IMG/VR virus record: IMGVR_UViG_3300032323_000716
Location: 51,831-115,830 of that record
From: a virus
Strand: one strand, 5' to 3'
Length of the DNA: 64,000 nt
Of the stretch, positions 47,436 to 62,689 are shown piece after piece. Numbering within the stretch: the first letter of the stretch is position 1; every line of letters begins with the position of its first letter. Both the position numbers and the translations under genes were made by a program. The notes beneath the pieces are model-generated. The model ran no database searches. It was not told where the DNA came from and saw nothing but the letters and a program-made list of their open reading frames with translations.

Positions 47436-47439
47436 TTGA

Positions 47440-47914: not shown

Positions 47915-48088
47915 ACATATATGTAGCCCAAATGGGTCCTGCAGGGTAAAAAATTGGCCGCGCAAAAAATTTGAGTAGTAACTTTATCTATTCAGGGTGG
48001 TGATTTTAGACCATTAGTCATAAGTTAGCACATACTAACATATACACACTATGCCGGCCACCCCACCATGCCCCACCACCGACCACCA

Positions 48089-48289
48089 TCAACACCTCGG
48101 AGTCTGGTAGGGTCCACACTGTCTCAGATGGCCACAGCATCTGCGCTCTGCTGCGTTGTCCCAGTTAGGCAGTTGCTCGAAGAGACTCTGCCCCGGCTTA
48201 GGATCCCACGCAGCATCTCTAGGATCGCGTGTTGCGCAGCCTGCTAACAGTAGACTAACTGCAGATGCGGCTAATACAGTCTTTAACAT
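48089..48289 (-). CDS. putative lipoprotein
   Basis: Signal peptide with LLAGC lipobox; Cys-rich C-term. Confidence 0.6.
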   Translation of the reverse strand: MLKTVLAASAVSLLLAGCATRDPRDAAWDPKPGQSLFEQLPNWDNAAERRCCGHLRQCGPYQTPRC

Positions 48290-48479
48290 CTTCAGTGATC
48301 TCTGTGTGTTGATCCATTACTGCTGCGATCATTAGTTGATGTATGACCACAGCATCCTTCTTATAGTCTGCGGGCATACTGTTAATAAGAGTCTGCACAT
48401 GTTCTTGACTCTCACAGTTCCAAAGCAGATCAGCAATCTGATACTGTTGATGAGTTAGGCCTTCTAGAGTAATAGTCAT
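48255..48479 (-). CDS. hypothetical protein
   Basis: 74-aa coupled ORF. Confidence 0.55.
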   Translation of the reverse strand: MTITLEGLTHQQYQIADLLWNCESQEHVQTLINSMPADYKKDAVVIHQLMIAAVMDQHTEITEDVKDCISRICS

Positions 48480-48700
48480 TAACTGTCCTTGATCTTCTTG
48501 AGTATGTTCTCACGTTCTAAACGATCTACTTCTGTTTGATATACGAAACGAATACCATATGCAAAGAACACCACAGCCCATGCTAGGCCTACCCATTCTA
48601 TGCCCAAGTAGTGAACAGCCACTGAGTTAGCAGCACCCAGCAGCAGTGCTGAGGTTGCAAATAAGACTGTGCGTTTTAGTGCTATTTGTTTTAGATTCAT
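48479..48700 (-). CDS. small membrane protein
   Basis: Two hydrophobic segments. Confidence 0.55.
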   Translation of the reverse strand: MNLKQIALKRTVLFATSALLLGAANSVAVHYLGIEWVGLAWAVVFFAYGIRFVYQTEVDRLERENILKKIKDS

Positions 48701-48701
48701 A

Positions 48702-48887
48702 TCAACTGTCCTTAACTAACTCTACACCAATATACATCAACATAAGGCTAGTCACTGTGACGCCAATTGAAGCAATCAGTTCTGAGGTATTCATGCTGGC
48801 TTCTACGCCGCCAACACCAAATCCTGCGCCCACAATGCCCGCAATCACTGCGATCATTCCCACTTTAACTTTGATTAATTCCTGCAT
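48702..48887 (-). CDS. small membrane protein
   Basis: Two hydrophobic segments, GAGAGCGA RBS. Confidence 0.55.
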   Translation of the reverse strand: MQELIKVKVGMIAVIAGIVGAGFGVGGVEASMNTSELIASIGVTVTSLMLMYIGVELVKDS

Positions 48888-48953
48888 CATTCGCTCTCTT
48901 TCTTTGTGTGTATGTGTCAATTATACTGTCAATTCGTTGAGTTGTCAACCAAA

Positions 48954-49274
48954 TTAACGAGGAATACGCACAACAATGCCCTGTGCTGTAGCCACAACTT
49001 CATAGCCCTTGTCTTCTAGAATGCTAACTGCCTGTTTAGAGATCGTTTTATCACGAGCAATTTGGCCTGCAATCTTTACAGCAATAAACTTCTTGCGATA
49101 GTTAATGTATGAGTTAGCATAAGCGTAGGCAGTGTCCAGAATGTCCAGGGCTCGTTGTGCTAGGCACTGCTGCTCCCTAGTGTATGTGCAGGCCATCTCT
49201 CTGTTGCGATAGTGTGCGTTGACTGCTGCTTTGTATGCGTTGTCTTCTGCTGATCGTGTGTTAAGTTGTTTCAT
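48954..49274 (-). CDS. hypothetical protein
   Basis: Own promoter and AGGAGCGC RBS. Confidence 0.6.
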   Translation of the reverse strand: MKQLNTRSAEDNAYKAAVNAHYRNREMACTYTREQQCLAQRALDILDTAYAYANSYINYRKKFIAVKIAGQIARDKTISKQAVSILEDKGYEVVATAQGIVVRIPR

Positions 49275-49328
49275 GTTGCGCTCCTGTTTGTGTATATGTG
49301 TTTATTATAAGGCCGCGAGCCCAAATGG

Positions 49329-49565
49329 TCAACCAAAATAGCGGAATAACCCGCCACAGCATACGGCGATTGCCACTGCGTTGATCAGCATCTGCGGACG
49401 GTTGTTAACACGCACAGTCCAGACGAAGAAGCAAACACCACCTAGCAATCCGAACACAATGTTCCAAGGATGCAGTTCGGGGAAGTAGCTCATGATCACG
49501 TACATGGCCAAGATGTTGGCTGTACCTAACCACTGGATTGTTTCGTCTATGTGTTTGTATGTCAT
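49329..49565 (-). CDS. small membrane protein
   Basis: Three hydrophobic segments; -10 box 6 nt upstream of ATG. Confidence 0.6.
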   Translation of the reverse strand: MTYKHIDETIQWLGTANILAMYVIMSYFPELHPWNIVFGLLGGVCFFVWTVRVNNRPQMLINAVAIAVCCGGLFRYFG

Positions 49566-49596
49566 GTAGTTATTATACGGTCATTTAGCCAAAATG

Positions 49597-49827
49597 TCAA
49601 CCATTTTTCGTGTTGCAGAATTGCCACATCTTTAACTCTGCGCCACGCAGTCCCAGCAGGACTCCCTCGAAGTCCCTGTAGGAGCAGCAGCCTACGATGT
49701 TTGGATATACTCTGTATCCATAGACCTCAACACTCTTTAGAGAGCGTGTGACCGCAGCCTTGGCGGGTCCTGGTTTGGTATAGTACTTGACCAGATTGCC
49801 GTCGTCATCGTAGGTAACCCAGCCCAT
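49597..49827 (-). CDS. hypothetical protein
   Basis: 76-aa coupled ORF. Confidence 0.55.
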   Translation of the reverse strand: MGWVTYDDDGNLVKYYTKPGPAKAAVTRSLKSVEVYGYRVYPNIVGCCSYRDFEGVLLGLRGAELKMWQFCNTKNG

Positions 49828-50063
49828 TAGTCTATGACCTTTACCACTTGATAGCCATAGATCTTCAACTTGCGGATTGCAGCCTGAATCTCTTGATGTG
49901 TGTCGTTGAGGTCATCTAAGCAGTTTTTAACTTCTTTCAAGTTGTCTGCTGTGCAGGTCTGACCTGAGTAGATATGACGGCACTCGTAGTAGCGGTCATC
50001 ATCATCTTGAATCAGTTGGTATGTGCCAAATGTCTTATAGACCGCGATTTCGCCTGCTTTCAT
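49827..50063 (-). CDS. hypothetical protein
   Basis: AAGGAGCGAACT RBS. Confidence 0.6.
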   Translation of the reverse strand: MKAGEIAVYKTFGTYQLIQDDDDRYYECRHIYSGQTCTADNLKEVKNCLDDLNDTHQEIQAAIRKLKIYGYQVVKVID

Positions 50064-50134
50064 AGTTCGCTCCTTTGTTGCTGGTGTAAATGTATTATAC
50101 GGTCTTTTGGATAGCCCGTCAACCCTTAGGGTCT

Positions 50135-50524
50135 TTATACGTTGTTTTTCTGCAACAGTCTGCTGCCGTTATCTTCGGAGATGATTAGGCGAACATTTGT
50201 AAGGTTTTCTTTGAGTCTGTCAATCAGTTGATCACGATCAATTCCCTGACCTAGGAACTGATTGTTGTCCAATCTGTAGGCATAGAGCATGCCGTGGACT
50301 TCTTCGATCTTGATCTCCATGGGAGTCAACGTGGATTCCTCAGCAGCATTCTGTGGATTCTCAGTGGTTAGATCGATGTCGTTATCGCGGGCTAACTTGC
50401 GCAGTTGCTGTTCCGTGACGCCCAAATCACGTAGGATCTCTCTGAAACTCAGGGCCATCCATGCTCGGCTCACGGCGGAACCTAACCAACAACCTACTAT
50501 GAATGCTATAATTAGTTCTATCAT
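50135..50524 (-). CDS. membrane-anchored hypothetical protein
   Basis: N-term hydrophobic helix; TATAAATA-N5-ATG. Confidence 0.6.
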   Translation of the reverse strand: MIELIIAFIVGCWLGSAVSRAWMALSFREILRDLGVTEQQLRKLARDNDIDLTTENPQNAAEESTLTPMEIKIEEVHGMLYAYRLDNNQFLGQGIDRDQLIDRLKENLTNVRLIISEDNGSRLLQKNNV

Positions 50525-50546
50525 ATGAATATTTATAGGTAGGGTT

Positions 50547-50580
50547 AAAAAAGAGGGTGTGGCTGTTATACCACACCCCC
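50547..50580 (-). terminator. rho-independent terminator containing TGT-N12-ACA palindrome
   Basis: GGGTGTGG...CCACACCC followed by T-run on minus strand. Confidence 0.75.
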
Positions 50581-50584
50581 AATG

Positions 50585-50618
50585 TACCCAGAACCAGGAG
50601 CGAACTGTTTACTGGGTA
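50585..50618 (-). ncRNA. candidate anti-RBS hairpin RNA 1
   Basis: Stem TACCCAG/CTGGGTA with apical AGTTCGCTCCTG, complementary to early-gene RBS. Confidence 0.5.
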
Positions 50619-50920
50619 ACTGCTGCTGCTGCCTTCGCGACAGTGGCTTTTGTTGCCTGCGGCTTGGCCACAGGATTCTTCTTGGCTACGTAAGTGATCG
50701 CGTCTGCGACTGCCTTACGGCCTTTTGCGAAATCAGTCTCAGTCAAATGCTGCGCGATTTCGCCTTTGGTCATCTCGCGGGGAAGATCCGCCAACTCGAT
50801 GTCTGTGTGGCCGTTCTTGGCCAAGATCTTGATGCGCATCACATCATTGGCAAAACGAATCTTAGTCTTACCATCTAGTGTTGAAACACCTGCTACTGCA
50901 AACTTTTTATCTGTTGCCAT
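50609..50920 (-). CDS. small basic protein with Lys/Ala-rich tail (putative nucleic-acid binding)
   Basis: 103 aa, C-term AKKNPVAKPQATKATVAKAAAA; own promoter; RBS lacks GGAGCGA. Confidence 0.6.
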   Translation of the reverse strand: MATDKKFAVAGVSTLDGKTKIRFANDVMRIKILAKNGHTDIELADLPREMTKGEIAQHLTETDFAKGRKAVADAITYVAKKNPVAKPQATKATVAKAAAAVTQ

Positions 50921-51000
50921 TTTGTTACCTCTTTATGTGTGTGTAAAATAAACTACTCGAGTTACTATTATAACATCGAACTTACCAAAGCGTCAACCAT

Positions 51001-51183
51001 TCATTTACCCAAATTAGACACTTGAATGGTTACCGCTTCTTTCTCGTCTAAGGCCGCGATAAACTCATCGTCAAAGACCAGATCCTGCATGTTCATGTCG
51101 ATCATCTGTTCGACACGAGCCAAATCACTGTCGCCGTCGCTGGCGCAGATGATCTCAAATTGAAATTTAAAGATTCTGGGCAT
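51001..51183 (-). CDS. hypothetical protein
   Basis: 60-aa ORF with AAGGAG RBS. Confidence 0.5.
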   Translation of the reverse strand: MPRIFKFQFEIICASDGDSDLARVEQMIDMNMQDLVFDDEFIAALDEKEAVTIQVSNLGK

Positions 51184-51460
51184 CTTCCCAAAACTCCTTG
51201 CGTAATTGAAACATCACTAACGCTTCCTCTTTAAGGTATACAGCACTCTTTTCAGAGTCCCAAGCCCAAACAGGTTGCACTCCATCGAAGTTCTCAGGTC
51301 GAGCCAATGCTTGCTCTGCTGATGGGCCAAACTGTGTCCAAAGCCAGTTGCGGACTCGAATCCACTGTTTGATCCTGACCTGTGGACCACCGTAGAACTC
51401 AACCCTATGCGTAAAGAAGCCATAGCCGTTGTAGTTGCGGTTCAGTTTGACCACATGCAT
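51167..51460 (-). CDS. hypothetical protein
   Basis: 97 aa, W..W..FGP motif. Confidence 0.55.
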   Translation of the reverse strand: MHVVKLNRNYNGYGFFTHRVEFYGGPQVRIKQWIRVRNWLWTQFGPSAEQALARPENFDGVQPVWAWDSEKSAVYLKEEALVMFQLRKEFWEDAQNL

Positions 51461-52089
51461 TATGCTACCACCAAACCTAACTTCTTGCGTTCTTCAACGC
51501 CTTCTGTGATCCAATCTGTGAGTTCTTCATCATCTTCTTGGAACTCACGGATGCCTTCGGAGATGCAGAACATTTCATCTAGATCGCTAGGGATAGTTGC
51601 TTCTACTTCATCGGCACTCATGTCACCGATCTCGTAGTAGTCATCACTGCCCTCTTCCCAAATACCACAGTAGGCCATGCCTGACTCATAGTAATAGGCA
51701 CGAACAGTGTAGCCCTGCTCGTAGAGTTCTTGATAGACTCCCTGTGGTGGGCTCCACGCTGAATCAAACGATGCAGTCATAGTCTTACCACTATCGGAAA
51801 CATCAGCCTGACTGTCGCCACCGCAGTCCCACTTAGTGCCCCAACGGCTGACCTGATAGTCATACCAGTCCTTGGCACCGTAGAGTTCAACATTGCGTTC
51901 CATCTGTGCTTCGTGTGCATCACGCTCTGGACCCTCAGGAACAGAACCTGACACTGTTTCTGTGAGATCCTTGGGTGTAGGAATCACATGACTGCAGAAC
52001 TCACCGTTATTCAAAGCATCTGCCAAAGCACGGATCTTCGCAGGATCTTCGTGGCTTATTTCTACAAAGTTGTTGCACCAATTAGGCAT
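51460..52089 (-). CDS. DUF1281/YubB-like ferredoxin-fold protein
   Basis: MPNWCNN, WYD...WGTKWD, FDSAWSPP, YYESGM. Confidence 0.7.
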   Translation of the reverse strand: MPNWCNNFVEISHEDPAKIRALADALNNGEFCSHVIPTPKDLTETVSGSVPEGPERDAHEAQMERNVELYGAKDWYDYQVSRWGTKWDCGGDSQADVSDSGKTMTASFDSAWSPPQGVYQELYEQGYTVRAYYYESGMAYCGIWEEGSDDYYEIGDMSADEVEATIPSDLDEMFCISEGIREFQEDDEELTDWITEGVEERKKLGLVVA

Positions 52090-52098
52090 ATTCGCTCC

Positions 52099-52284
52099 TT
52101 AATCGTAGTCAGCGGAACTCAATTCAACAGCACCTTCGATCTCGCTGTATAGATCGTAGATCTTCTGGACGATGATACGCTTCTGTCCAGGACGAACGGG
52201 CAGTTCTGACACCAGTTCTTCGATCTCATCCAATTTGGTATCGATGTCCTGGATAACCATATCTAGTTCACTCATCGCACTCAT
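52099..52284 (-). CDS. acidic helical hypothetical protein
   Basis: AGGAGAGCGA RBS, own promoter. Confidence 0.55.
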   Translation of the reverse strand: MSAMSELDMVIQDIDTKLDEIEELVSELPVRPGQKRIIVQKIYDLYSEIEGAVELSSADYD

Positions 52285-52294
52285 ATCGCTCTCC

Positions 52295-52483
52295 TTAGTA
52301 GATGTTAGTATTATACAACCGTTCATCCAAATTGTCAACCAAATTCTGTTCAATCTCTGTGGCGCTTTTGCCACAGATCTGTTCCATGGTCCTTAGAATC
52401 TTTCGCTGTGCCATGGGGGTAGTTTCAGGGGATTCCAAGGCTTCTACAGCCCGTTTGATATATTGGAACTCTTCTAGGGTCAT
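52295..52483 (-). CDS. hypothetical protein
   Basis: Coupled ORF whose C-term reads through next promoter. Confidence 0.45.
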   Translation of the reverse strand: MTLEEFQYIKRAVEALESPETTPMAQRKILRTMEQICGKSATEIEQNLVDNLDERLYNTNIY

Positions 52484-52776
52484 ACCGTCACCACCTTCCA
52501 TGGATCTACTTGGTCTGAATTCTTGATCTGTTTGGCCAACAGTTCGTTCTTTTGATTCTGTGCAGTGCGTAGCAGTTGCTCACGGATCTCTGCCCTGCGA
52601 GCCTTAGGCAGTTCAGAGATAACTTCTGCCAACACTGATGAGAAATAACCACAGGCGTAAGCATAGGAACCATCGCAGTTCTCACGTGAAGCCTGCTCGA
52701 CTTCGTTAATGGCGTTGCGAGTAGACCGGCTCTCGTCTAGGTATTCGTTAAACTTCTCTTGTGCTGATTTAGGCAT
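52480..52776 (-). CDS. hypothetical protein
   Basis: AGGAGAGCGA RBS, own promoter. Confidence 0.6.
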   Translation of the reverse strand: MPKSAQEKFNEYLDESRSTRNAINEVEQASRENCDGSYAYACGYFSSVLAEVISELPKARRAEIREQLLRTAQNQKNELLAKQIKNSDQVDPWKVVTV

Positions 52777-52813
52777 TTGTCGCTCTCCTTAGTATGTGTA
52801 TATTATAGCACCA

Positions 52814-53035
52814 CTAAACCAAATTGTCAACCGATTTGTAGTCTTTAACCATACGGTACAAAGGGTCAATTTCTTCCGAGTTTTCCAATTCAAAGTCATC
52901 GGAGAGCCAATCGATCCATTCCTCGAGGACAGGGCTGGCATCCCGGACCAACTCACGTGCTTCCTCCTCGGATTCTGCTTCTACCTGAAAGGTTTCAGCC
53001 ACGATGCTGTTGCGCCAGAATGTAAACTTTTTCAT
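52814..53035 (-). CDS. acidic hypothetical protein
   Basis: VEAESEEEARE motif. Confidence 0.55.
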   Translation of the reverse strand: MKKFTFWRNSIVAETFQVEAESEEEARELVRDASPVLEEWIDWLSDDFELENSEEIDPLYRMVKDYKSVDNLV

Positions 53036-53358
53036 ACAGACTCCACGTGCTTACAAGCACCACGGAACGTGAACCCCGGGCAGGTACAGGTCTTTTCCTC
53101 TACATTAACGTAGTAGGAATTGCCCTTAGACCCCTTGACTTCCACAGTTGCATTCTTGGCTGCATTCTTTGGGGATTTAAATGCTCCGGAGTCTGCTTTC
53201 TCAAACTTTCGGCCCCTCTTATCGAATCCTTTGATTCCTGATTTGAAATAGAAAGGATCCGTGGTGCCCTGCTTGATATAGGCAATCAAAGTAGTGCCAT
53301 CCAACAGGTAAACGTGGGGAGGAAACTGTCCCCCTGTGGTCTCACGCAGTGCTTCCAT
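53032..53358 (-). CDS. SWIM zinc-finger protein
   Basis: GSKGNSYYV...CTCPGF..RGACKH. Confidence 0.75.
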   Translation of the reverse strand: MEALRETTGGQFPPHVYLLDGTTLIAYIKQGTTDPFYFKSGIKGFDKRGRKFEKADSGAFKSPKNAAKNATVEVKGSKGNSYYVNVEEKTCTCPGFTFRGACKHVESV

Positions 53359-53624
53359 CAACGGTAATCCTTCTTGTCACCAAAACGCTCGTTGTAGTCG
53401 TAGCCCGCCATGTATTCAGCGATCTCGTCTTGGGTAAGGTTCTCTACAGGCTCACCTTGGTAGGACCCCATTGGATACCAATGAGGATCGCGTCTACGAC
53501 CGTAGTATGAGTCTGCTGATCCACGATCATACAGGCCACCGTGGCGCTTACGATCGAACTGTGGGCCTTTAAGGGCACGGATCACAGCCTTTTGTTCATC
53601 TTCAGTCATTAAATGTATATACAT
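53358..53624 (-). CDS. hypothetical protein
   Basis: HGGLYDRGSADSYY, EY.AGY motifs; AGGAGCGAA RBS. Confidence 0.6.
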   Translation of the reverse strand: MYIHLMTEDEQKAVIRALKGPQFDRKRHGGLYDRGSADSYYGRRRDPHWYPMGSYQGEPVENLTQDEIAEYMAGYDYNERFGDKKDYR

Positions 53625-53633
53625 CTTCGCTCC

Positions 53634-53801
53634 TTATTTCATTGGGCCGTTAAACAATCCACCTAGCGAACCAAAGGCAAACTTCCACTCTAGTTCACGG
53701 CGTTCTTCTGCAGTTGCGTTGGGGAACTCTTTACGCACAAAGTTCTGGATGTCTTTGAGGATAAGTCCTGCTACGTCTTTTGCTGGAATAATTGATGCCA
53801 T
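53634..53801 (-). CDS. hypothetical protein
   Basis: Start ATG53801 after AGGAGCGAAC. Confidence 0.55.
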   Translation of the reverse strand: MASIIPAKDVAGLILKDIQNFVRKEFPNATAEERRELEWKFAFGSLGGLFNGPMK

Positions 53802-53872
53802 TTGTTCGCTCCTTCTATTCACTATACCTATAGTATAACACCGAAAGTCCAAACTGTCAACCAAAAACTGCC

Positions 53873-54052
53873 TTAGCAGTCCGGGTCAAAACTAGCCCAC
53901 TCCTCTTGCTCCGTAGGCTGCCCGTCATCTGCATCAGCAGCCTCTGCTTCCAAACAGTAAACAACCTCTAGGATTTGGTTGCCCAAATAGTTCTTACCAG
54001 CAGCAAACAACACATCCGCTACCGCTTCCAACTGTTCAATTTCCTGTTGCAT
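53873..54052 (-). CDS. acidic hypothetical protein
   Basis: Start ATG54052; C-term DGQPTEQEEWASFDPDC. Confidence 0.55.
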   Translation of the reverse strand: MQQEIEQLEAVADVLFAAGKNYLGNQILEVVYCLEAEAADADDGQPTEQEEWASFDPDC

Positions 54053-54140
54053 AATTAACTCCTTATCGTTTACTATACCTATAGTATAACGCCAGTTGTC
54101 CAAAATGTCAACCAAAATAAAAGCCCTTTCGGGCTTAGGG

Positions 54141-54488
54141 TTAATCCAATCTTGATCCTGCGTAGGCTTCGAAGCCATACCTCTTGAACACCGCAGCAGC
54201 CGCAGCAGCCCCGGCCTCGAGTGTGTCCACGTTCTGGCAGCCGAATCCGCTGGGGTTATACATCTGCAGGCCGCCTGTGTATGAAGGACGAATATTGCAC
54301 TCTTTCAGTGCGCGGCCAATCTTTGTGTTACCTTTGACACCGTAGATGTTCACCCAGGCAAAGCCGCAGGCGAATTGATCCTTACCACCCAGGCGCATAT
54401 GGAAATACTCTGCTGCCGCAGCATACGCAGCAGTCTTGGCTTCGTTGACAATTGCTGGGATCTGCTCAGGGGTTGCTGTGATAGTCAT
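54141..54488 (-). CDS. hypothetical protein
   Basis: CGFAWV and C-term SRLD motifs; AGGAGCGAA RBS. Confidence 0.6.
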   Translation of the reverse strand: MTITATPEQIPAIVNEAKTAAYAAAAEYFHMRLGGKDQFACGFAWVNIYGVKGNTKIGRALKECNIRPSYTGGLQMYNPSGFGCQNVDTLEAGAAAAAAVFKRYGFEAYAGSRLD

Positions 54489-54566
54489 CTTTCGCTCCTT
54501 TGTGTTAAACAATACCCATAGTATAGCACCATGGGTATCAAATGTCAACCAAAATGTAGAAAGACC

Positions 54567-54893
54567 CTAGTGGCGTCTGGGTTGCTTTAGCAGTTCCGCT
54601 TCTTTACGCAGTCTGCCGGCCTGTTTATACATCTCGTCGGCACTCCTGCGCAGTTCTTCGGCCCGAGCCTGGCTGAGACTGGTCCCACCGAACTCACGTG
54701 AAATGTAGTAGTCAACGAGACGGTTCTTGATCATAGTAGGCAGATTGTCGCCGTGATCTTCAGGTACGATAAAGCGAACAGGGCAATGACCCCATCCGCC
54801 TTTTTCTATGTATTCTGCATAATAGCGTCTATGATCCTTGTTAGTTGGATCAAACGCCACTAAAGGACGCATTAGATATTCTAATCTGCTCAT
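54567..54893 (-). CDS. hypothetical protein
   Basis: FDPTNKDHR, WG.CPVRF; TATAAATA-N6-ATG. Confidence 0.6.
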   Translation of the reverse strand: MSRLEYLMRPLVAFDPTNKDHRRYYAEYIEKGGWGHCPVRFIVPEDHGDNLPTMIKNRLVDYYISREFGGTSLSQARAEELRRSADEMYKQAGRLRKEAELLKQPRRH

Positions 54894-54894
54894 G

Positions 54895-55068
54895 TCAACT
54901 ATTTATAGTGTTAAATGGGTCACAGTCCATGACATAGCAGGCCTCGGGCTGATCACTGACTACTTCTTTAATAGTCTCTTTGATATCCTGCCAGTCTGCG
55001 TCTTCGTCCATGAGCACACCGTCTTCGTCATAGAAAGGATCTTCAAACAACATTCCGAATCCACTCAT
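54895..55068 (-). CDS. small acidic protein (57 aa)
   Basis: Manual translation MSGFGMLFEDPFYDEDG...DPFNTINS; coupled to upstream ORF. Confidence 0.45.
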   Translation of the reverse strand: MSGFGMLFEDPFYDEDGVLMDEDADWQDIKETIKEVVSDQPEACYVMDCDPFNTINS

Positions 55069-55190
55069 TTAACGGTCTCCTTCATGACTTCTTGGGTTTT
55101 ACCTACGGCCTTATCAATGGCGTTTGCTACTCCGGTAACGCCTACAGTGGCCACGAACATACCTGCTACGAATGCAAGAAGAACTTTCAT
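55065..55190 (-). CDS. small membrane/secreted peptide (41 aa)
   Basis: MKVLLAFVAGMFVATVGV...; AGGAGCGA RBS. Confidence 0.55.
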   Translation of the reverse strand: MKVLLAFVAGMFVATVGVTGVANAIDKAVGKTQEVMKETVK

Positions 55191-55200
55191 ATATCGCTCC

Positions 55201-55293
55201 TTAACCTACAAAGATCCAATAAGAACCTACAGCCACCGCATAGACAGCGACAGCGTAGCCCAGTTGCTTTACATCTTCTAACAGCCAATCCAT
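55201..55293 (-). CDS. small membrane peptide (30 aa)
   Basis: MDLAVRRCKQLGYAVAVYAVAVGSYWIFVG; AGGAGCG RBS, own promoter. Confidence 0.45.
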   Translation of the reverse strand: MDWLLEDVKQLGYAVAVYAVAVGSYWIFVG

Positions 55294-55402
55294 ATACCGC
55301 TCCTTCCTTACCATATGTATATTATACGATCAATCTACCCAGTTGTCAACCGCCTCTTAGCAGCGGGGTCAGTGGCTAAAAAGCCACACCCGCCGGCACT
55401 CG

Positions 55403-56596
55403 TCAAGCGGACTCTGTTTCCTTCTCGTAGATCACAGTCTGACCAAAGGGTGCTTCTGCTTGTGTATTACCCTTGACGATAAAGATTGTATCGCAGTAGT
55501 CCTCGTTGCCCCAACCACCACAAGGGTAGCCGTCTGTGAACATAATGAACTTCTTAGGCTGGATACCGTTCTCTTCCATGAATGTCCAGTTGACTTCGAA
55601 GTCTGTGCCACCACCGCCCATAGGTTCGTAGTTAAGCAGGTCCTCACTGTTGTCGTGTGTGATTCTTTGGAAGTTATAGATCTCTGTGTCAAAGCACCAT
55701 AGGCTAATAGCAAAGTCCTCGTACTGGTCCATGATGCCCTTGATCTCTGAAAGAAATACAGTTGCATCCTCTTCACCAATAGAACCTGACATATCAATAG
55801 AAACGGCCACGTCAATAGTAGTTGCTTCTTTCATGCCCGGAAGGATTGCGCCACTGTGCATACTCTTACGGTTAGGGCGTGTAAAGGAGTAGTCGTTGCG
55901 GATGATGCTTTGGATCTCTTGACGAACAAGAGTGCGCCAGTCCATCTTAGGCTCAGTCAATGACTTGATCATACGCATAATGCCTGCGGGAGTCTTACCT
56001 GCACCAGCGGCCGCGGCACTCTGGATCATAGCCTGCTTGATCTCATCACGGATCTTCTGTGCTTCCTCTTTGCTCATAGTGGGCTTCTTGCCATCACCCT
56101 CTTCACCAGGAGCACCCTCTTTGATATGCTCGTCCAGCAGTTCACCGATCTGCTTGAGCAGTTCAGGCATACTGATCTTCTCTGCTTTCTCATAGAGATC
56201 ATCGTAGATCTCTTCCCAGGCCATACCACGGTATTTGCTGTCTAAGCAGATCTTAACTTCAGTGATCTTCTCACCAATACGCTCATCTACGAGGATCTGG
56301 TTGACTGCAAAGTCCTGTGCGATATTAGACAGTTGACGATCACGGCTACCAACACGACCGAAGTGATCTAGGATACAGTGGAGGATTTCGTGTGCGAACA
56401 AGAACTCTAGTTTCTTAACGCTGAGTTTCTCTACGAATTTTGTAGAATAATAAAAGTCACGGCCGTTAGTTGCGGCGGTTGGGCACCAGTCATCTGCTCT
56501 GACCAGTTTCATACGAGTTGCCATGTTGCCGAAGAACGGCGCCTTGAGCAGTAGGCCTACTCGTGCAGTTGTTAGTTTCTCTACGATTGGATCCAT
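55403..56596 (-). CDS. metallopeptidase-like + vWA domain protein (DUF2201-type)
   Basis: TAATNG, HEILH zincin motif, DMSGS MIDAS, GGGTDF, FTDG. Confidence 0.85.
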   Translation of the reverse strand: MDPIVEKLTTARVGLLLKAPFFGNMATRMKLVRADDWCPTAATNGRDFYYSTKFVEKLSVKKLEFLFAHEILHCILDHFGRVGSRDRQLSNIAQDFAVNQILVDERIGEKITEVKICLDSKYRGMAWEEIYDDLYEKAEKISMPELLKQIGELLDEHIKEGAPGEEGDGKKPTMSKEEAQKIRDEIKQAMIQSAAAAGAGKTPAGIMRMIKSLTEPKMDWRTLVRQEIQSIIRNDYSFTRPNRKSMHSGAILPGMKEATTIDVAVSIDMSGSIGEEDATVFLSEIKGIMDQYEDFAISLWCFDTEIYNFQRITHDNSEDLLNYEPMGGGGTDFEVNWTFMEENGIQPKKFIMFTDGYPCGGWGNEDYCDTIFIVKGNTQAEAPFGQTVIYEKETESA

Positions 56597-56652
56597 TAGT
56601 CGCTCTCCTTACTATGTATATATTATAGCACCTTCAGGCACCCTTGTCAACC

Positions 56653-56687
56653 AAAAAAAAAGGGTGTTGCGTTTCCACAACACCCCC
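56653..56687 (-). terminator. rho-independent terminator containing TGT-N12-ACA palindrome
   Basis: GGGTGTTG...CAACACCC plus T9 on minus strand. Confidence 0.8.
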
Positions 56688-56703
56688 TGCTATGGGCGAG
56701 GTC

Positions 56704-57789
56704 TTAATTCTCCATAGCACTGAGAACATACTTGCCGAACCGCTTGTGGAACTCGTCGAACGAGTCCATCTTAGTTGCATCCAACGGCAAGTTGTAATTA
56801 GTAAGGGCAGTCTTGGCACCCATCACTACCAACTCTGTTGGGAAGTTCTGCATCATATACTGGAAGAAGCGATCAGCCATTGCATCCCAACCTTTGACCT
56901 TCTTCTCTGCACGATCCTTCAACTCATAGCAAAGGCTAACTGTCAAAGAATACATCGCAGACACTTCCTTGATCTGCAGGTCCTTGACCTTACCATCGAG
57001 GATGTCATCTGCCTTAGGCAGTTTACCAGCGATCTTACGGTGAGCCATGAACTTATTGCCCAAGCCATCACCAACGGCACCCGCGATCAAGTTCTGCAGG
57101 GTATCGTTATCAACATCGTCGTCAGTGAGCAGATCACTGACAAAGCACCATGAACGAGGAGTTGCAAACGCCTTAGACGCTGACTTAGGATCAAAGTCGT
57201 AGAGGTCTTGCTTGGCAAAGCCTACATAACCTACAACCTCAGGGTGGATCTTGTTGAGCGTAGCCCAATCTTGCCAGTCATCAAAGTCCACTTTCATTTC
57301 CAAGTGAACGAAGCGGTTAGCCAACGGAGCAGGCATACGATAGGTAACACCACGGTCACCTTCACGGTTACCAGCGGCGACCACGTCAACGCCCTTAGGC
57401 AATACATAGGTGCCTACTCGACGGTTAAGGATCAACTGATAGGCCGCGGCCTGAACAGCCGGAGGAGCAGAGTTCAACTCATCCAAGAAGATGATAGCAG
57501 TAGACTCTGGGTCCATAGGCAGTTCGCTTGGGGGAGCCCAAACCATCTTGCCCTGCTCTGAGTTGTAATAAGGGATACCTTTAATGTCAGTAGGTTCCCA
57601 AAGGGCTAGGCGAACGTCAATGACTTCGCGACCTGCGTCATCACCGATCTGCTTGACGAGATCGGATTTACCAATGCCTGGAGGGCCCCACAAGAATGCA
57701 GGACGGCGAACTGCCAGGGCTTTACGGATTGCCTTTTTGGCTGACTTAGGGCCAACTTGGCGGACGGAAATATCAGTGCTCTTGCTCAT
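56704..57789 (-). CDS. MoxR-like AAA+ ATPase
   Basis: GPPGIGKS, FLDELN, AAGN, PLANRF, TPRSW. Confidence 0.9.
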   Translation of the reverse strand: MSKSTDISVRQVGPKSAKKAIRKALAVRRPAFLWGPPGIGKSDLVKQIGDDAGREVIDVRLALWEPTDIKGIPYYNSEQGKMVWAPPSELPMDPESTAIIFLDELNSAPPAVQAAAYQLILNRRVGTYVLPKGVDVVAAGNREGDRGVTYRMPAPLANRFVHLEMKVDFDDWQDWATLNKIHPEVVGYVGFAKQDLYDFDPKSASKAFATPRSWCFVSDLLTDDDVDNDTLQNLIAGAVGDGLGNKFMAHRKIAGKLPKADDILDGKVKDLQIKEVSAMYSLTVSLCYELKDRAEKKVKGWDAMADRFFQYMMQNFPTELVVMGAKTALTNYNLPLDATKMDSFDEFHKRFGKYVLSAMEN

Positions 57790-57865
57790 TAAGACCTCGC
57801 TTTAAAAAATTAAACTAACTATCAATCTCTCAGTGTTAATAGTATAACACCAACCGGTTCATTTG

Positions 57866-58501
57866 TCAACCGATGATTTTCACAAAATTTAACTGTGTTG
57901 TTTTATTGCCACGTTGTTGCTTGACCTTGCCCTTGATACGGACTGTGCCTTCTAGGGCGGAACTGAACCAGAAATCAATGATGCTTTCTCCCATACGGGC
58001 ATCGATCTTGTGCTTTTGATACTCGTTGCTGAATCGTGTGCGGATCACTTGGATTTCGCCTACGATCACATCCCCAGGCTGCCCCTGCAGTTGCTCTGAA
58101 GTGAAGATCTCACGTTTGAGTTCAGTCTGTGCTTGATCGCGTCTGGCCACATCAGGCAAGCAGCCTATCACAGCAAAGTCGTACATATCCTTGCCAGTGA
58201 ACTCTTCTTTGGTAGCGATACGCATAGCAGTCTGCTGGAACTCGTTGAGTTGTCCTGAGATAGCCTTAAAGGTATAGGTTTTGAAATGATCCCGGGCGCA
58301 GCGTCCTGCAGCGATATCTGATTCTGTGGCGATGTTTAGGGTACCTTCACGCAGCCATGTCTTGATCATGACTTTGTTAGGACGCTTTATGGGATTCTTT
58401 TGATCCACTTCGAAGTTCCAAACATCTTCCTTGATGTAGCCACCGTTGATACGATCGGCTGCAACAGCCAGGCCCCATACTTGATCTGCAGTGAAGTTCA
58501 T
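57866..58501 (-). CDS. hypothetical protein (possible C-terminal OB fold)
   Basis: Start ATG58501 after AGGAGCGAAC; IKGKVK...TQLNFVK C-term. Confidence 0.55.
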   Translation of the reverse strand: MNFTADQVWGLAVAADRINGGYIKEDVWNFEVDQKNPIKRPNKVMIKTWLREGTLNIATESDIAAGRCARDHFKTYTFKAISGQLNEFQQTAMRIATKEEFTGKDMYDFAVIGCLPDVARRDQAQTELKREIFTSEQLQGQPGDVIVGEIQVIRTRFSNEYQKHKIDARMGESIIDFWFSSALEGTVRIKGKVKQQRGNKTTQLNFVKIIG

Positions 58502-58599
58502 TGTTCGCTCCTTCATAATGTACTTATTATACGATCTCTAGCCCAATCTGTCAACCGGAGGAGTGCCGGCGGGTGTGGCGAAAATACAACACTAGGACC

Positions 58600-58630
58600 A
58601 AAAAGAAAGGCCGCATATAGCGACCTTTCT
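58600..58630 (-). terminator. rho-independent terminator
   Basis: AGAAAGGTCGC-TATAT-GCGGCCTTTCT-TTTT on minus strand. Confidence 0.75.
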
Positions 58631-58668
58631 CAAACTCCGCCCCGGGAGCGAATCGGCTTGGAATTTGA
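58630..58668 (-). ncRNA. candidate anti-RBS hairpin RNA 2
   Basis: Stem TCAAATTCC/GGAGTTTGA, inner CCG/CGG, loop ATTCGCTCC complementary to early-gene RBS. Confidence 0.5.
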
Positions 58669-58679
58669 AGGGGGTTTAC

Positions 58680-58955
58680 TTAAACAGTAATGCCCATTGC
58701 CTTGGCTTTGTAACCAAGAGCAACGATTTCACGGCTTGGCATGCCCAACTCATACTCAGTAACAGTAACGCCATTACCTGCTGTGCGAGTGTTGCTGTAA
58801 ACAGCATAACCGTTTTGACGGATGCGGCTTGCTTCAGCGGCCAAGTTCTTAACACCGAAACGCTTGCTGGCTTCTGCTTGTGTCAACTTGTCACCAGACT
58901 TGAGTGCTGTAAAAACCTTGAATGTCTTTGTTTCTTTAGAAAATGTATATTTCAT
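58680..58955 (-). CDS. small basic winged-HTH-like protein
   Basis: LT..EA..RFGV.NL.A..S.IR..GY pattern followed by beta-wing; RBS lacks GGAGCGA. Confidence 0.6.
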   Translation of the reverse strand: MKYTFSKETKTFKVFTALKSGDKLTQAEASKRFGVKNLAAEASRIRQNGYAVYSNTRTAGNGVTVTEYELGMPSREIVALGYKAKAMGITV

Positions 58956-59046
58956 TTGAATGTTTCCTTTAAATTTAAAGCTGATAAAATGTTATTCAGC
59001 GTCCGTTAATTATAGCAACCTTGCGATCTAAATGCAACCATCAAGA

Positions 59047-59238
59047 TTACCGTTTTACCTTGACACTGGGTCCAATCAAAGAACCCAGGATCAAAGCGGC
59101 TGCCCACGTCCAAAATGTGTAGGGGATAGCCAACACAGGGAACAGGGTGTTCAGGGCCCAAATAGTCAGCAACGGACCCAGAATGATGAGGAATAGGATT
59201 AGTGCCACTATCCCTAGAAATTTAACGACTGTGCCCAT
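59047..59238 (-). CDS. small membrane protein
   Basis: Highly hydrophobic, start ATG59238. Confidence 0.6.
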   Translation of the reverse strand: MGTVVKFLGIVALILFLIILGPLLTIWALNTLFPVLAIPYTFWTWAAALILGSLIGPSVKVKR

Positions 59239-60338
59239 TAGTAGGCTCCTTTCATAACAGTGACCTTGGCCATGTTCTGCCAATTAGCAGGGAAACTCTT
59301 ACGCAGATCTGCTACTTTCAGTACAGTACGCAATGACAGTTCACGCATAGTACCACGGTGATCATTGATGAATTTAACTACCTCGTCCTTGGCAATGTCT
59401 TCTAACTCGTATGAGTCCAACATGCCGTCCTTAACGATCTGCTGGATACGCAGGATCTTCTCGCGATCTGTGTCCATGCGCAGGTCGATATAATGACAGC
59501 GTGACTCTAAGGCACTCAGGTGATCCTGCAGTTTCTTAGAACGCACATTCTCAAACTTCAAGTTTGTGATAAAGATAGCACCACCCTTGAACTCAAACTT
59601 GTCCGGGATACCTTCGCTACGCAGGAGTCGCGAGTCCGTGTTCCACGAGATAGTACGCTTCTTAGAACTGTCCAAAGCGGCCTTAAGGATGTTAAGCGCA
59701 ATGTCGTCCAAAAGAATGCTGTCGCAGTCATCGAACACAAGGATGTTCTTAGCGTCTGAGAACTGATAGAGTTTTGAGTACAAGCCAATGGCACTCATAG
59801 CACCCTTGACGATCTCATAGCGTGGCTTACGCTCGCCCAAGGTGTTAAACAGGTCGTCTTTGGCAAGTACTTCTTCAACACCAAACGACTTACCCACACC
59901 TGGAGGGCCTGTGACGATCATAGCACGGACATCGCCTGCTTTCACAGCCTTGGTCATGTCCTTGAGGATCTCAAAGCGCATACGGGTACGCTCAATGATC
60001 TCTTCGTCAGTTTCGTGTGCTACAGCCTCGTCTGAGACTTTGATCTGTGTAAAGTCCGTGATCTCGGCACCCTTGACAGTTTTAGATTTCAGTGCAGTCA
60101 GCATGCTTACTCCTTGAGGGATGGGTTTAGCAGAACCCGCGACATTGTAAGCACCCTGCTCACAACGGATACGGATTGAACGATCTGGGAAACCGGGCTG
60201 GCTACCGCCCTCTACAGTGACATAGCCTTCGCCACCCTTAGAAACTTTGAAGTCTTCTACTAGTTTAAAGGTCATGCCTGCAACATTAGTAGGCTGGCCC
60301 TTAATGTTGTAATAGCCCTCTGTGAAAGTAATATACAT
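59238..60338 (-). CDS. AAA+ / P-loop ATPase
   Basis: GPPGVGKS, VFDDCD, FITN, SRC; start ATG60338 after AGGAGCGAAC. Confidence 0.8.
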   Translation of the reverse strand: MYITFTEGYYNIKGQPTNVAGMTFKLVEDFKVSKGGEGYVTVEGGSQPGFPDRSIRIRCEQGAYNVAGSAKPIPQGVSMLTALKSKTVKGAEITDFTQIKVSDEAVAHETDEEIIERTRMRFEILKDMTKAVKAGDVRAMIVTGPPGVGKSFGVEEVLAKDDLFNTLGERKPRYEIVKGAMSAIGLYSKLYQFSDAKNILVFDDCDSILLDDIALNILKAALDSSKKRTISWNTDSRLLRSEGIPDKFEFKGGAIFITNLKFENVRSKKLQDHLSALESRCHYIDLRMDTDREKILRIQQIVKDGMLDSYELEDIAKDEVVKFINDHRGTMRELSLRTVLKVADLRKSFPANWQNMAKVTVMKGAY

Positions 60339-60424
60339 CTGTTCGCTCCTGTGTATGTTCATCATTCTATTATTATAATGCCAATGCTCGCAATTGTCAA
60401 CCACTAACCCTATGCCCTGTAGGG

Positions 60425-60844
60425 TTATTCTTCTTCTGCTGTTAGGTGCTCAACGGTGTTTTGGGCTAGGGCATCGGACAGCAGTACCAAACCCCCTTTG
60501 ATCAAGCCGGGCACATCGTAGACGGCACCCACGTACCACTCCCCGTCCTTCATCACGTAGTAATACTCACCGTGACAGCCTTCAACCTGCTCGAGGAACT
60601 CTTCAAAGGTATGTGCCACTGAGTAGCCCACGTTCTCTTCGCCGCGATCTGTGTAGAAGTTCATTTCCTCTACAGTCTCTTTGACACCACTGTTGTCCCC
60701 ACGTGCAACTAGGGCATTGGCCTTCACTGAGTCATAGTGTTTGTGCAGCAATTCACCGGTGTATTCCAAATAGCCATCGTAGTGGCAGTAGACGCTTTTG
60801 CAGACTGTGCCATGCATGACACCCACTCGTGAACGTGTACCCAT
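60425..60844 (-). CDS. hypothetical protein
   Basis: MGTRS, YCHYDGY, EYYY motifs. Confidence 0.6.
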   Translation of the reverse strand: MGTRSRVGVMHGTVCKSVYCHYDGYLEYTGELLHKHYDSVKANALVARGDNSGVKETVEEMNFYTDRGEENVGYSVAHTFEEFLEQVEGCHGEYYYVMKDGEWYVGAVYDVPGLIKGGLVLLSDALAQNTVEHLTAEEE

Positions 60845-60899
60845 TTCGTCGCTCCTTTGTTAAACAATAAGTCTATTATACTGCCAAAATAAAGCCCTG

Positions 60900-61292
60900 T
60901 CAACCCCACTGGGCTTCGAAGGCTGCTTCCTGTTCCTGCAGCATAGCAGCAAGATCTACGCCAAACTTGGCACTCCAAGCCTTGAGGAACTTTTTGCCCA
61001 CATCGCAGGAAACGTAGTCGTCGCCCTGCATGCCCTGCTCGCTGTAGGAAACATCTGAGCCCTGCAGGCCGTGTGTGTCCAGGAACTGCCTAAGTTCGCT
61101 GATGAACTGTTTGTCCGTGTAGATCAGACCCTGCTTGTTAACATCCCACGAGTCTGTGTGGAAATAGACACGTAGTTCACCAAAGTCCAGTTCATCGCTG
61201 ATATAGCCCAGACGCATGTCTGTGATACGTACAGCCTGTTCTGTGTTAGACCAATAGCCGCCACCGCCTGTGTGCATGATAACTTCTGACAT
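60900..61292 (-). CDS. hypothetical protein
   Basis: GLIYTD, YSEQGMQG motifs. Confidence 0.6.
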   Translation of the reverse strand: MSEVIMHTGGGGYWSNTEQAVRITDMRLGYISDELDFGELRVYFHTDSWDVNKQGLIYTDKQFISELRQFLDTHGLQGSDVSYSEQGMQGDDYVSCDVGKKFLKAWSAKFGVDLAAMLQEQEAAFEAQWG

Positions 61293-61302
61293 TGCTTGCT
61301 CC

Positions 61303-61662
61303 TTAACTGCTTTTGATAGTCAACATTGTAAACTGTTTTGCCAAATAGGTCAACCGATCTTTGGCCTCTACCATGGCATCTAGTACTAGATCTTCGCCCA
61401 CGTCGCTGAGGCTGTCTTTGGCATCTTCATAGAGCATGCCCCCGCAGCAGGCTGAGCCCAACTCTACACCTTCTGCTATGACCCTAGCACGTAACACAAA
61501 CCAGTCTAGATCCCCACGATCGATCTTAGCGCACATGTCTGCGATGTCGTAGGCACTGTCGTCAAAACAGTCGTTGGGATGTACGTCTTCCCAGGTCTTG
61601 TCTAAGACCACTACGAACCCTTCCTGCTCGCGTTCTAACAGTGTGTCCCAGTGTCTTTGCAT
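61303..61662 (-). CDS. hypothetical protein
   Basis: AGGAGCGAACT RBS. Confidence 0.6.
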   Translation of the reverse strand: MQRHWDTLLEREQEGFVVVLDKTWEDVHPNDCFDDSAYDIADMCAKIDRGDLDWFVLRARVIAEGVELGSACCGGMLYEDAKDSLSDVGEDLVLDAMVEAKDRLTYLAKQFTMLTIKSS

Positions 61663-61714
61663 AGTTCGCTCCTATGTTGAATTAGCGAGGGCTCTCTCGT
61701 TGGCCCTCTCCACG

Positions 61715-61912
61715 TTACTGCTTAGGTGCAAACATCCGTCTGCCTGCTGCCATAAACATATTATACGCTACTCTGTCCTCTTTGTCAAGATCATCGTAGC
61801 AGAATTCCATGTCTTTTAAGCCCGCTAGGATGTCACCCCCAGTGTGCAGTTCAGCATAGTTCTGCACTAGTGTGCAGGCATCTCCTAGTTCCATGTACAA
61901 GGGTGTACCCAT
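61715..61912 (-). CDS. hypothetical protein
   Basis: 65-aa coupled ORF. Confidence 0.55.
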   Translation of the reverse strand: MGTPLYMELGDACTLVQNYAELHTGGDILAGLKDMEFCYDDLDKEDRVAYNMFMAAGRRMFAPKQ

Positions 61913-62229
61913 TATATGCCTCTCTTGTCAGTGTTGTAAAAAGGGTTCTGTTCGCGGATTAATTCACGCTCACGTGTGTGTGCAGCCTGCTTGCCGCGGA
62001 TGATCTCAAGCACACGAACATCAATGTCTTCTTTGCTCTCATAGCCGCGTAGCAGTTCGCACAGAGTCCAGGACTTGGTCTCACGTTGCGCACGATACCA
62101 GTGCTTGGCCATTCGGCTACGAACGCTCTTTAATACAGTAGTTTCAGTCTTGGCCGTAACGCCAATGTATACGCCCTCAGGACCCTGTATTTGGTATATG
62201 ATGTGATTGCGATCGTTTCGTTTCTTCAT
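61912..62229 (-). CDS. GIY-YIG nuclease domain protein
   Basis: IIY...YIGVT, R..H, E..LI, N motifs. Confidence 0.7.
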   Translation of the reverse strand: MKKRNDRNHIIYQIQGPEGVYIGVTAKTETTVLKSVRSRMAKHWYRAQRETKSWTLCELLRGYESKEDIDVRVLEIIRGKQAAHTRERELIREQNPFYNTDKRGI

Positions 62230-62371
62230 ATTAGTATTATACGATCACAGCACCAATCTGTCAACCAAACGGATCAAAACCCTAGTCAGAGTAGGGTTAT
62301 CCAAACTGTAGCCAAAATGCCACAGCCTAGGCACTCTCCTTCTGTGCCAGGTCAGTTAGTGCTTACTAACC

Positions 62372-62485
62372 CTATTTCGTGACCCAAAGAATGATCGCGA
62401 CCGCAGCAAGGAAGATCCCGAGAAAGATCCCACACTGCTGCAGAGTTGTGGTACGTGCCCAGATGCTAGTGTGTTGATCGTTCAT
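62372..62485 (-). CDS. small membrane peptide (37 aa)
   Basis: Manual translation MNDQHTSIWARTTTLQQCGIFLGIFLAAVAIILWVTK. Confidence 0.4.
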   Translation of the reverse strand: MNDQHTSIWARTTTLQQCGIFLGIFLAAVAIILWVTK

Positions 62486-62526
62486 TGCTGCTGTTTCCTT
62501 TCCCTGCTGCTGTTGTGCTGCTGTTA

Positions 62527-62601
62527 TGGCCCGGCGACTAGGAATCGAACCTAGATTGACGGCTTAGAAGGCCGCTGTATTATCCATTATACTATCGCCA
62601 G
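62527..62601 (-). tRNA. tRNA-Arg(TCT)
   Basis: Cloverleaf, acceptor CTGGCGA/TCGCCGG, anticodon loop CT-TCT-AA, GGTTCGATTCC, encoded CCA. Confidence 0.92.
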
Positions 62602-62605
62602 ATTC

Positions 62606-62683
<78 letters not shown>

Positions 62684-62689
62684 CAAATA

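Follow-up and report, generated by a model that had tools for sequence, protein, structure and literature searches.

A ribosome-site tag in the small-gene array of a jumbo phage and its exact complement in conserved 3'-end hairpin loops: a candidate RNA control of early protein synthesis

Temporal control in lytic phages is known to act mainly on transcription (sigma factors, modification of RNA polymerase), together with a few proteins that act on mRNA, such as RegA and RegB of T4. The c4 RNA of phages P1 and P7 is reportedly a phage RNA with exposed segments that pair with the ribosome-site region of an mRNA of the same operon (a finding ascribed to Citron and Schuster, 1990); in icaR of Staphylococcus aureus, a segment of the 3' untranslated region (3'UTR) is said to pair with the Shine-Dalgarno (SD) region and to repress translation. 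The present report concerns a 64,000-nt stretch of viral DNA (the window), which is the terminal 64 kb (positions 51,831 to 115,830) of the 115,830-bp IMG/VR record IMGVR_UViG_3300032323_000716, estimated by CheckV to be about 33% complete. A minus-strand array of small genes in this window carries a 3' extension of the SD sequence, AGGAG(AG)CGA(A), also written AGGAGCGAA, which we call the tag; the loops of two hairpins in the same array carry its complement.

Several described systems are close to this one. The cuckoo/CcsR (alpha-r14) RNAs of Alphaproteobacteria comprise between two and four hairpins, which vary in their stems and share a single anti-SD loop motif, CCUCCUCCC (PMC4615179, PMC8034643). 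The small RNAs (sRNAs) of Firmicutes with C-rich loops (S. aureus RNAIII, RsaE/RoxS type) bind the SD of several mRNAs by unpaired loops and block initiation (PMC3053349). The work on the antisense RNA c4 is cited in PMC8201110. In T4, RegB and ribosomal protein S1 provide a class-specific post-transcriptional inactivation of early mRNAs via the SD sequence GGAG and its downstream context (PMC1702504, PMC3014915); the 11-nt RegB target comprises GGA and a downstream consensus, and its cleavage inactivates early mRNAs (PMC1702504).

In the window, the plus-strand form TCGCTCCT (equal to AGGAGCGA on the gene strand) has 12 copies where 1.09 would be expected, and none of 100 dinucleotide shuffles reaches 12; the form with the AG insert, TCGCTCTCCT, is found 3 times against 0.09 expected. 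Sixteen sites (10 AGGAGCGA, 3 AGGAGAGCGA and 3 variants) lie 0-4 nt, mostly 3 nt, upstream of minus-strand ATGs. The genes were called with a home-made scorer of open reading frames (ORFs) and ribosome-binding sites (RBSs), not with a trained gene finder. The sites are as follows.

61666..61673, minus strand: RBS tag AGGAGCGA, 119-aa gene (61303-61662), 3 nt of spacing to the ATG; preceded by a hairpin and without its own promoter
60849..60856, minus strand: RBS tag AGGAGCGA, 139-aa gene (60425-60844); own TTGACA-N17-TATAAT promoter
60343..60350, minus strand: RBS tag AGGAGCGA(ACAG), 366-aa P-loop-like gene (59238-60338); own promoter
58505..58512, minus strand: RBS tag AGGAGCGA, 211-aa gene (57866-58501); own promoter
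56600..56609, minus strand: variant AGGAGAGCGA, 397-aa DUF2201 (metallopeptidase and VWA-like) gene (55403-56596); own promoter
55297..55304, minus strand: variant AGGAGCGG, 30-aa ORF (55201-55293); own promoter
55194..55201, minus strand: RBS tag AGGAGCGA, 41-aa ORF (55065-55190); no promoter of its own
54492..54499, minus strand: RBS tag AGGAGCGA, 115-aa gene (54141-54488); own promoter
53806..53813, minus strand: RBS tag AGGAGCGA, 55-aa gene (53634-53801); own promoter
53627..53634, minus strand: RBS tag AGGAGCGA, 88-aa gene (53358-53624); no promoter of its own
52780..52789, minus strand: variant AGGAGAGCGA, 98-aa gene (52480-52776); own promoter
52286..52295, minus strand: variant AGGAGAGCGA, 61-aa gene (52099-52284); own promoter
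52092..52099, minus strand: RBS tag AGGAGCGA, 209-aa gene (51460-52089); no promoter of its own
50067..50074, minus strand: RBS tag AGGAGCGA, 78-aa gene (49827-50063); own promoter
49278..49285, minus strand: variant AGGAGCGC, 106-aa gene (48954-49274); own promoter
48891..48898, minus strand: variant GAGAGCGA, abutting the ATG of a 62-aa gene (48702-48890); own promoter

Twelve of the sixteen sites lie 15-25 bp downstream of a promoter, and four tagged genes have no promoter of their own; considering that the latter are tagged as well, the tag belongs to the ribosome site and not to a promoter cassette. In the AG-insert variant the distance from GAGCGA to the ATG is kept, the GGAG being shifted 2 nt upstream, so the conserved unit is the part that matches the hairpin loop described below.

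The array itself can be described in one line.

48900..62300, minus strand: small-gene array with at least 14 consensus or near-consensus sigma-70-type promoter cassettes, (GG)TTGACA-N17-TATAAT

Each cassette leads to one or two small genes with leaders of 18-26 nt. Consensus sigma-70 promoters and short leaders are the usual appearance of early genes that depend on the host polymerase; judging by this promoter type, the array genes are probably driven by the host RNA polymerase and immediate-early. The G+C content of the array (about 48.7-62.3 kb) is 46-49%, against 31-43% in the rest of the window, and is about 8-10 points above that of the remaining record.

The tag is restricted to the array. 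GAGCGA is present at -22..-1 of 14 of the 28 array genes (48.7-61.7 kb) and of none of the 101 other genes of the record (Fisher p = 2e-11); when the comparison is limited to starts bearing GGAG, the figures are 13/19 and 0/32 (p = 6e-8). In the GGAG genes outside the array the next base is mostly A (GGAGAA), and their AAGGAGAA-type sites fit the ordinary CUCCUU tail of 16S rRNA. The whole record contains only two further copies of AGGAGCGA, one internal to a coding region (19975-19982) and one on the opposite strand, within an anti-tag hairpin (50596-50603). Long relatives likewise have the tag confined to the array; in a 96%-complete relative of 356 kb, all 9 gene-strand copies fall inside one early array of about 7 kb. 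In register after AGGAG, the CGA is mismatched with the 16S tail (3'-CAC-5') at all three positions. Hence the tag lacks what would make it an extended SD sequence, namely an extension complementary to the 16S tail upstream of CCUCC.

An initial annotation, made from the sequence, had listed these coordinates, and all sixteen are real. Its statements that the motif is missing from late and replication gene starts and that CGA has no pairing with the usual anti-SD are both borne out by the record-wide comparison and the register of the tail. Its term "temporal-class tag" holds in part: the tag is confined to the array, but it marks about half of the array genes and not all early ones, and the timing is read from the sigma-70 promoters.

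The tag is under selection, and its conservation goes beyond shared descent. With the array ATPase as a query, 80 IMG/VR loci were collected: 61 close ones (ATPase at least 80% identical) and 19 "far" ones. In the close loci there are 284 copies of AGGAGCGA on the gene strand against 6 on the opposite one. Among 872 starts of these loci with GGAG in the SD position, the following bases are CGA in 302 and AGC in 70 (mostly the AG-insert form GGAGAGCGA), with CGC, CGG and CGT as the next commonest triplets. Of all 8-mers at 1127 gene starts, AGGAGCGA is counted 250 times and GGAGCGAA 187 times, the latter being among the three commonest. At least 59 distinct protein families are preceded by the tag in these relatives, in which the ATPase is 80-92% identical. 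In orthologous leaders the background information content is about 0.5-0.6 bit; GGAG reaches 2.0 bits and the following C, G and A 1.3, 1.1 and 0.9 bit. The leader stretch between the -10 box and the SD has diverged while CGA was kept.

The complement of the tag is found at the ends of two untagged, presumably early transcripts, in hairpins placed just behind a stop codon and just ahead of an intrinsic terminator.

58631..58667, minus strand: anti-tag hairpin 1, in the 3'UTR of a 91-aa HTH_39 gene (58680-58955)
58600..58629, minus strand: intrinsic terminator right after hairpin 1, GAAAGGUCGC...GCGGCCUUUC followed by a U run
50584..50620, minus strand: anti-tag hairpin 2, spanning the stop codon of a 103-aa gene (50609-50920)
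50547..50580, minus strand: intrinsic terminator right after hairpin 2

Hairpin 1 has the outer stem CAAAUUCC/GGAGUUUG, a 3x3 internal loop, the inner stem CCG/CGG and a 9-nt loop, AUUCGCUCC (58645-58653). Hairpin 2 has the outer stem GUUACCCAG/CUGGGUAC, the inner stem CAG/CUG and the anti-tag UUCGCUCCU (50596-50604). On the gene strand of the 18-kb array TCGCTC/CGCTCC has two copies only, both in these hairpins.

In the relatives, the common fold comprises an outer stem of 6-9 bp, a 3x3 internal loop, a CCG/CGG inner stem and the 9-nt loop AUUCGCUCC. A 17-nt core, CCGATTCGCTCCCGGGG, is at least 90% invariant in 36 distinct copies with variable flanks. In minimum-energy folds the anti-tag is wholly unpaired in 53 of 68 unique copies, with a terminator immediately after. 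The ungapped alignment shows double-sided changes in all 8 outer-stem pairs; the stem covariation score is 0.415 against 0.142 in shuffles (none of 500 reaches 0.415), and slid controls stay at or below 0.157. Covarying stems around an invariant core indicate a structure at the RNA level with a protected loop. Variable covarying stems with an invariant unpaired loop are a feature of the class of anti-SD hairpin-loop sRNAs (cuckoo/CcsR, RsaE-like), and the phage hairpins have it. An Rfam cmscan of window positions 46000-64000 (E <= 5) gave two tRNAs and one chance hit, with no family at the hairpins.

The loop sequence UUCGCUCC is the exact complement of GGAGCGAA. Over the sixteen sites, the complementarity is perfect for 8-9 nt at AGGAGCGA sites and for 6-7 nt at the variants, so that the loop is also complementary to the ribosome sites of several mRNAs, as in the above sRNA class. 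The predicted loop-RBS duplex has -12.3 to -14.3 kcal/mol at standard AGGAGCGA sites and about -9.8 to -11.8 kcal/mol at variant sites (about -9.8 for the AG-insert variants); an E. coli-type anti-SD is predicted to give -6.5 to -9.5 kcal/mol on the same standard sites. On average the predicted loop duplex is -8.9 kcal/mol for array genes and -4.2 kcal/mol for all other genes (p = 8.5e-8). Neither gene family with a hairpin is ever tagged itself (0/61 and 0/20), as expected if the loop has to be kept from pairing within its own molecule.

The co-occurrence of tag and loop was followed across lineages. With a 60%-identical HTH homologue as a query, 79 further loci from broader lineages were obtained; a scan with a 48%-identical homologue (P0138) returned no viral contig. 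Co-occurrence was evaluated over 160 related loci and scored with longer motifs, since presence or absence of 7-mers is too noisy. Several types of 3'UTR follow the HTH gene, and the tags go with the loops.

Loci with loop A (n = 70): 1511 starts, tag A at 26.1%, ACACUA at 3.7%
Loci with loop B (n = 13): 383 starts, tag A at 9.1%, ACACUA at 31.3%
Loci with neither loop (n = 77): 1375 starts, tag A at 1.5%, ACACUA at 1.9%

Three loci have both loops, and both tags are present in them. In lineage B the hairpin has covarying stems (CCUGGG/CCCAGG, CCUCGG/CCGAGG, CCCGGG/CCCGGG) and the invariant loop GGUAGUGU; the early leaders read TATAAT..UACACACUAAGGAGCA..AUG, where ACACUA, the second commonest 6-mer at the gene starts of this lineage, is the exact complement of UAGUGU. 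One locus (L216) is tagged and has no hairpin behind the HTH gene. The presence of the loop elsewhere in its genome was a prediction that held: in this genome (356 kb, 96% complete) twin anti-tag elements close the tagged array at a different site, and the second of them is a hairpin with the same AUUCGCUCC loop, doubling as a terminator. Right after the twin elements begin gene starts with CATAAATA-like boxes.

A third pair, GGAGUUGAA/UUCAACUC, was considered in the "group C" loci and rejected: GGAGTTGAA proved to be coding sequence there, a conserved C-terminal end shared by a family of paralogues, and not an RBS tag. In L243, L267 and other "group C/D" loci the small-gene paralogues end in ...CAUUU(U/C)GGAGUUGAAGA-AUG, a junction that resembles a tag but in which a conserved coding end supplies the SD of the next gene.

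We presume that tagged ribosome sites are blocked through pairing with the 3' ends that bear the hairpins, and we would assign this reading a probability of roughly 0.6. In terms of the tag, its extension most probably serves as the target of an RNA which the phage makes to control the synthesis of early proteins. Among the readers of the tag proposed by the initial annotation, the antisense hairpins have gained strong comparative support (exact complement, covarying stems, co-occurrence and the matched pair of the sister lineage). The contact would be that of a loop with a single strand, by which the hairpin 3' ends bind tagged ribosome sites; the hairpin could act within the whole mRNA or as a processed 3'UTR-derived small RNA protected by the terminator. 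Pairing would cover the SD and the spacer, and a chosen subset of early mRNAs would be translationally repressed, destabilised, or both. Late phage genes (with GGAGAA-type sites) and host mRNAs would be spared; the extension would give this specificity, since the match of the loop with host and late phage sites is limited to GGAG.

It is tempting to go further and to see here a private, orthogonal translational layer: an SD barcode on selected immediate-early genes, read by the loops of the phage's own 3'UTR hairpins, which would serve as a self-timed off-switch with matched pairs (GGAGCGAA/UUCGCUCC and ACACUA/UAGUGU) swapped in sister lineages. We offer this broader proposal tentatively and consider its chances to be slightly less than even.

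Several observations speak against the proposed pairing, or against its simplest form. The loop is near-invariant in the lineage of the window, and base-by-base compensatory changes of loop and tag are therefore absent there. In a tree-corrected test of low power (on a weakly resolved tree of the 91-aa HTH protein, with 3-4 independent contrasts) loop B goes with tag B by 3 to 0, p = 0.25; with so few contrasts, the raw co-occurrence of tags and loops rests on few evolutionary events. In lineage B, single-stranded CGCUCC pairs with the dominant GGAGCA tag over 5 bp only. The 19 "far" ATPase loci have neither tag nor loop; the ATPase lies there in a different, AT-rich context, and for this reason these loci are uninformative and were dropped as evidence. 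The transcripts with hairpins and their presumed targets seem to be under the same kind of sigma-70 promoter, so a simple late shut-off is not evident; the logic would be delayed negative feedback rather than a late-made switch, or the timing could come from the accumulation of a stable 3' fragment. Finally, a contact of 8-9 bp may need a chaperone.

Other explanations have to be weighed against the pairing of hairpin loops with tagged sites. A protein may read the tag, either a RegA-type repressor or a RegB-type endoribonuclease, the loops being unrelated to it or acting as a decoy for the protein's RNA partner. The tag is indeed an SD with a defined 3' context on early genes, like a RegB-type target, and with a record that is 33% complete much of the genome is unseen. 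An RNA-binding protein and a RegB-like nuclease had been suggested by the initial annotation; however, neither PF10715 (RegB) nor PF01818 (RegA) has a match at E <= 1 among the proteins of the record, of four partial relatives and of the 96%-complete tag-bearing relative, so neither suggestion is supported in these genomes, although a non-homologous protein may read the tag. A protein reader also leaves unexplained the complement in conserved loops, the untagged state of the hairpin genes and the complementary pair of the other lineage. We consider this explanation unlikely.

The tag could also be a translation-efficiency element (a spacer optimum or an enhancer) that acts via ribosomal proteins or rRNA beyond the 3' tail, with coincidental loops. 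The distance from the tag to the ATG is fixed, as such an element would have it, and a mimicry related to the ribosome is conceivable: of 71 16S genes sampled, 27 have exactly GGAGCGAAC (present at window positions 60343-60353 and in other tags) as the universally conserved segment that immediately precedes AGGATTAGATACCC. Those with GGAGCGAAC include Actinomycetota, Flavobacteriaceae and Bacillota (the sample covers loci L081-L200), and the other 44 of 71 carry GGAGCAAAC. By this identity the hairpin loop would also be complementary to the host 16S rRNA in hosts with the G variant; a rough estimate of the probability of such an identity by chance is about 0.02. Yet the late, replication and other genes are served by the same ribosomes, and none of the 101 uses the tag; an enhancer that lacks pairing with the anti-SD also fails to explain the conserved complementary loops and the lineage-matched pairs. 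It appears improbable.

Considering that tag and anti-tag are the same site in duplex DNA and that an HTH_39 gene is adjacent to hairpin 1, one may think of an operator: a protein, e.g., this winged-helix neighbour, would bind the duplex GGAGCGAA/TTCGCTCC in either direction and stop early transcription. The position of the site past the promoter in twelve of the sixteen tagged genes would suit this. On the other hand, internal genes that lack a promoter have the tag as well, its strand is always the same, and its distance is constant with respect to the ATG rather than to the promoter; the reverse copies sit in the loops of covarying hairpins, which is a constraint at the RNA level; and 59 loci devoid of both loop and tag (tag A 1.5%) still possess the HTH gene. 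We find an operator harder still to accept. That the tag has no function of its own, having spread with duplicated promoter/leader/RBS cassettes or by gene conversion and being kept by descent, is very improbable: the array is built from repeated promoter cassettes, and four tag regions (family D7) are 74-91% identical over 23 nt including the first codons, but leaders have diverged with CGA kept, promoter-less genes and at least 59 families have the tag, and its complement is conserved independently. The chance that the host 16S tail is unusual and pairs with GGAGCGA, which would make the tag a longer SD and which the initial annotation named as grounds for giving up its view, is next to negligible, since the pattern GTCGTAACAAGGTARCC-N18-34-TCGCTCC has no match in 185,579 species genomes (a positive control in which CACCTCC replaces the final TCGCTCC is matched across all phyla among the matches listed) and the other phage genes fit the ordinary tail.

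Returning to the described systems, the hairpin element with its presumed pairing resembles the cuckoo/CcsR, Firmicutes C-rich-loop and c4 RNAs functionally and is a member of none of them: it has no Rfam match, is encoded by a phage and is directed to a private extension. With cuckoo/CcsR it shares variable stems and an identical loop complementary to ribosome sites, the phage hairpins being located in the 3'UTRs of small genes. Cuckoo/CcsR is cellular and a generic anti-SD, whereas the phage loop UUCGCUCC complements the private extension of the phage's own early genes, its presumed targets, and for this reason should spare ordinary host sites. The Firmicutes sRNAs use UCCC/CCCC against the G-rich SDs of host regulons and have no private tag, phage origin or module of a post-stop 3'UTR with a terminator. 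The c4 RNA has one target (icd/ant) in a temperate immunity circuit, whereas here one loop fits about 14-16 sites in the early array of a lytic jumbo phage. In the RegB/S1 system of T4 the reader is a protein nuclease with a degenerate A-rich context; here it would be a complementary RNA, and no RegB homologue was found in the genomes searched. No precedent for a phage sRNA with anti-SD action on early genes turned up in the literature searched, and the PA5oct paper has nothing on such tags.

Cis pairing of the icaR type seems to be shared by one mRNA of the array, while the pairing of tag and hairpin would be in trans with many targets. In the mRNA of the MoxR-type ATPase the RBS/start GCGAGGUCUUAAUG (57787-57800, minus strand) is exactly complementary to AUUAAGACCUCGC over its own stop codon (56696-56708, minus strand). 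Both sides change together in relatives (ACUGGAG/CUCCAGU, GGAGAGGUCA/UGACCUCUCC, AGGGGGUUU/AAACCCCCU), which points to a conserved 5'-3' pairing that would occlude the ATPase ribosome site. If so, occlusion of ribosome sites by 3' ends recurs in this phage group.

The source of the record is an uncultured jumbo myovirus, placed as such by its tail sheath, terminase and T4-type replisome. Its distant kin are Pseudomonas phage PA5oct, Sinorhizobium phage Phosso and Agrobacterium phage Atu_ph07 (tail sheath 41-47% aa identity); tblastn with the ATPase and the tail sheath finds these jumbo phages at 41-51% aa identity, and megablast of the array against GenBank phages gave no match. Contigs of relatives reach 340-380 kb. 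The 91-aa gene upstream of hairpin 1 (58680-58955, minus strand) encodes a winged-helix HTH_39 protein with more than 2,400 metagenome homologues, on contigs of up to 381 kb; the leader of this gene has no tag and is long, with the -10 box at -59. Genes of tRNA-Arg(TCT) and tRNA-Met(CAT) lie at the upstream edge of the array (62527-62683, minus strand). Outside the array, gene starts are often preceded by CATAAATA-like boxes (record positions 58263, 61985 and 73045; relative L280:5357-7000, G005), which we take to resemble the T4 late promoter TATAAATA.

If the proposed pairing is true, it would be a simple and evolvable way to regulate one class of genes with host and late messages left untouched, and it would offer synthetic biology a natural orthogonal pair of an RBS and a repressor RNA. 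Considering the abundance of this lineage in metagenomes, judged by the number of HTH homologues, the mechanism would be widespread.

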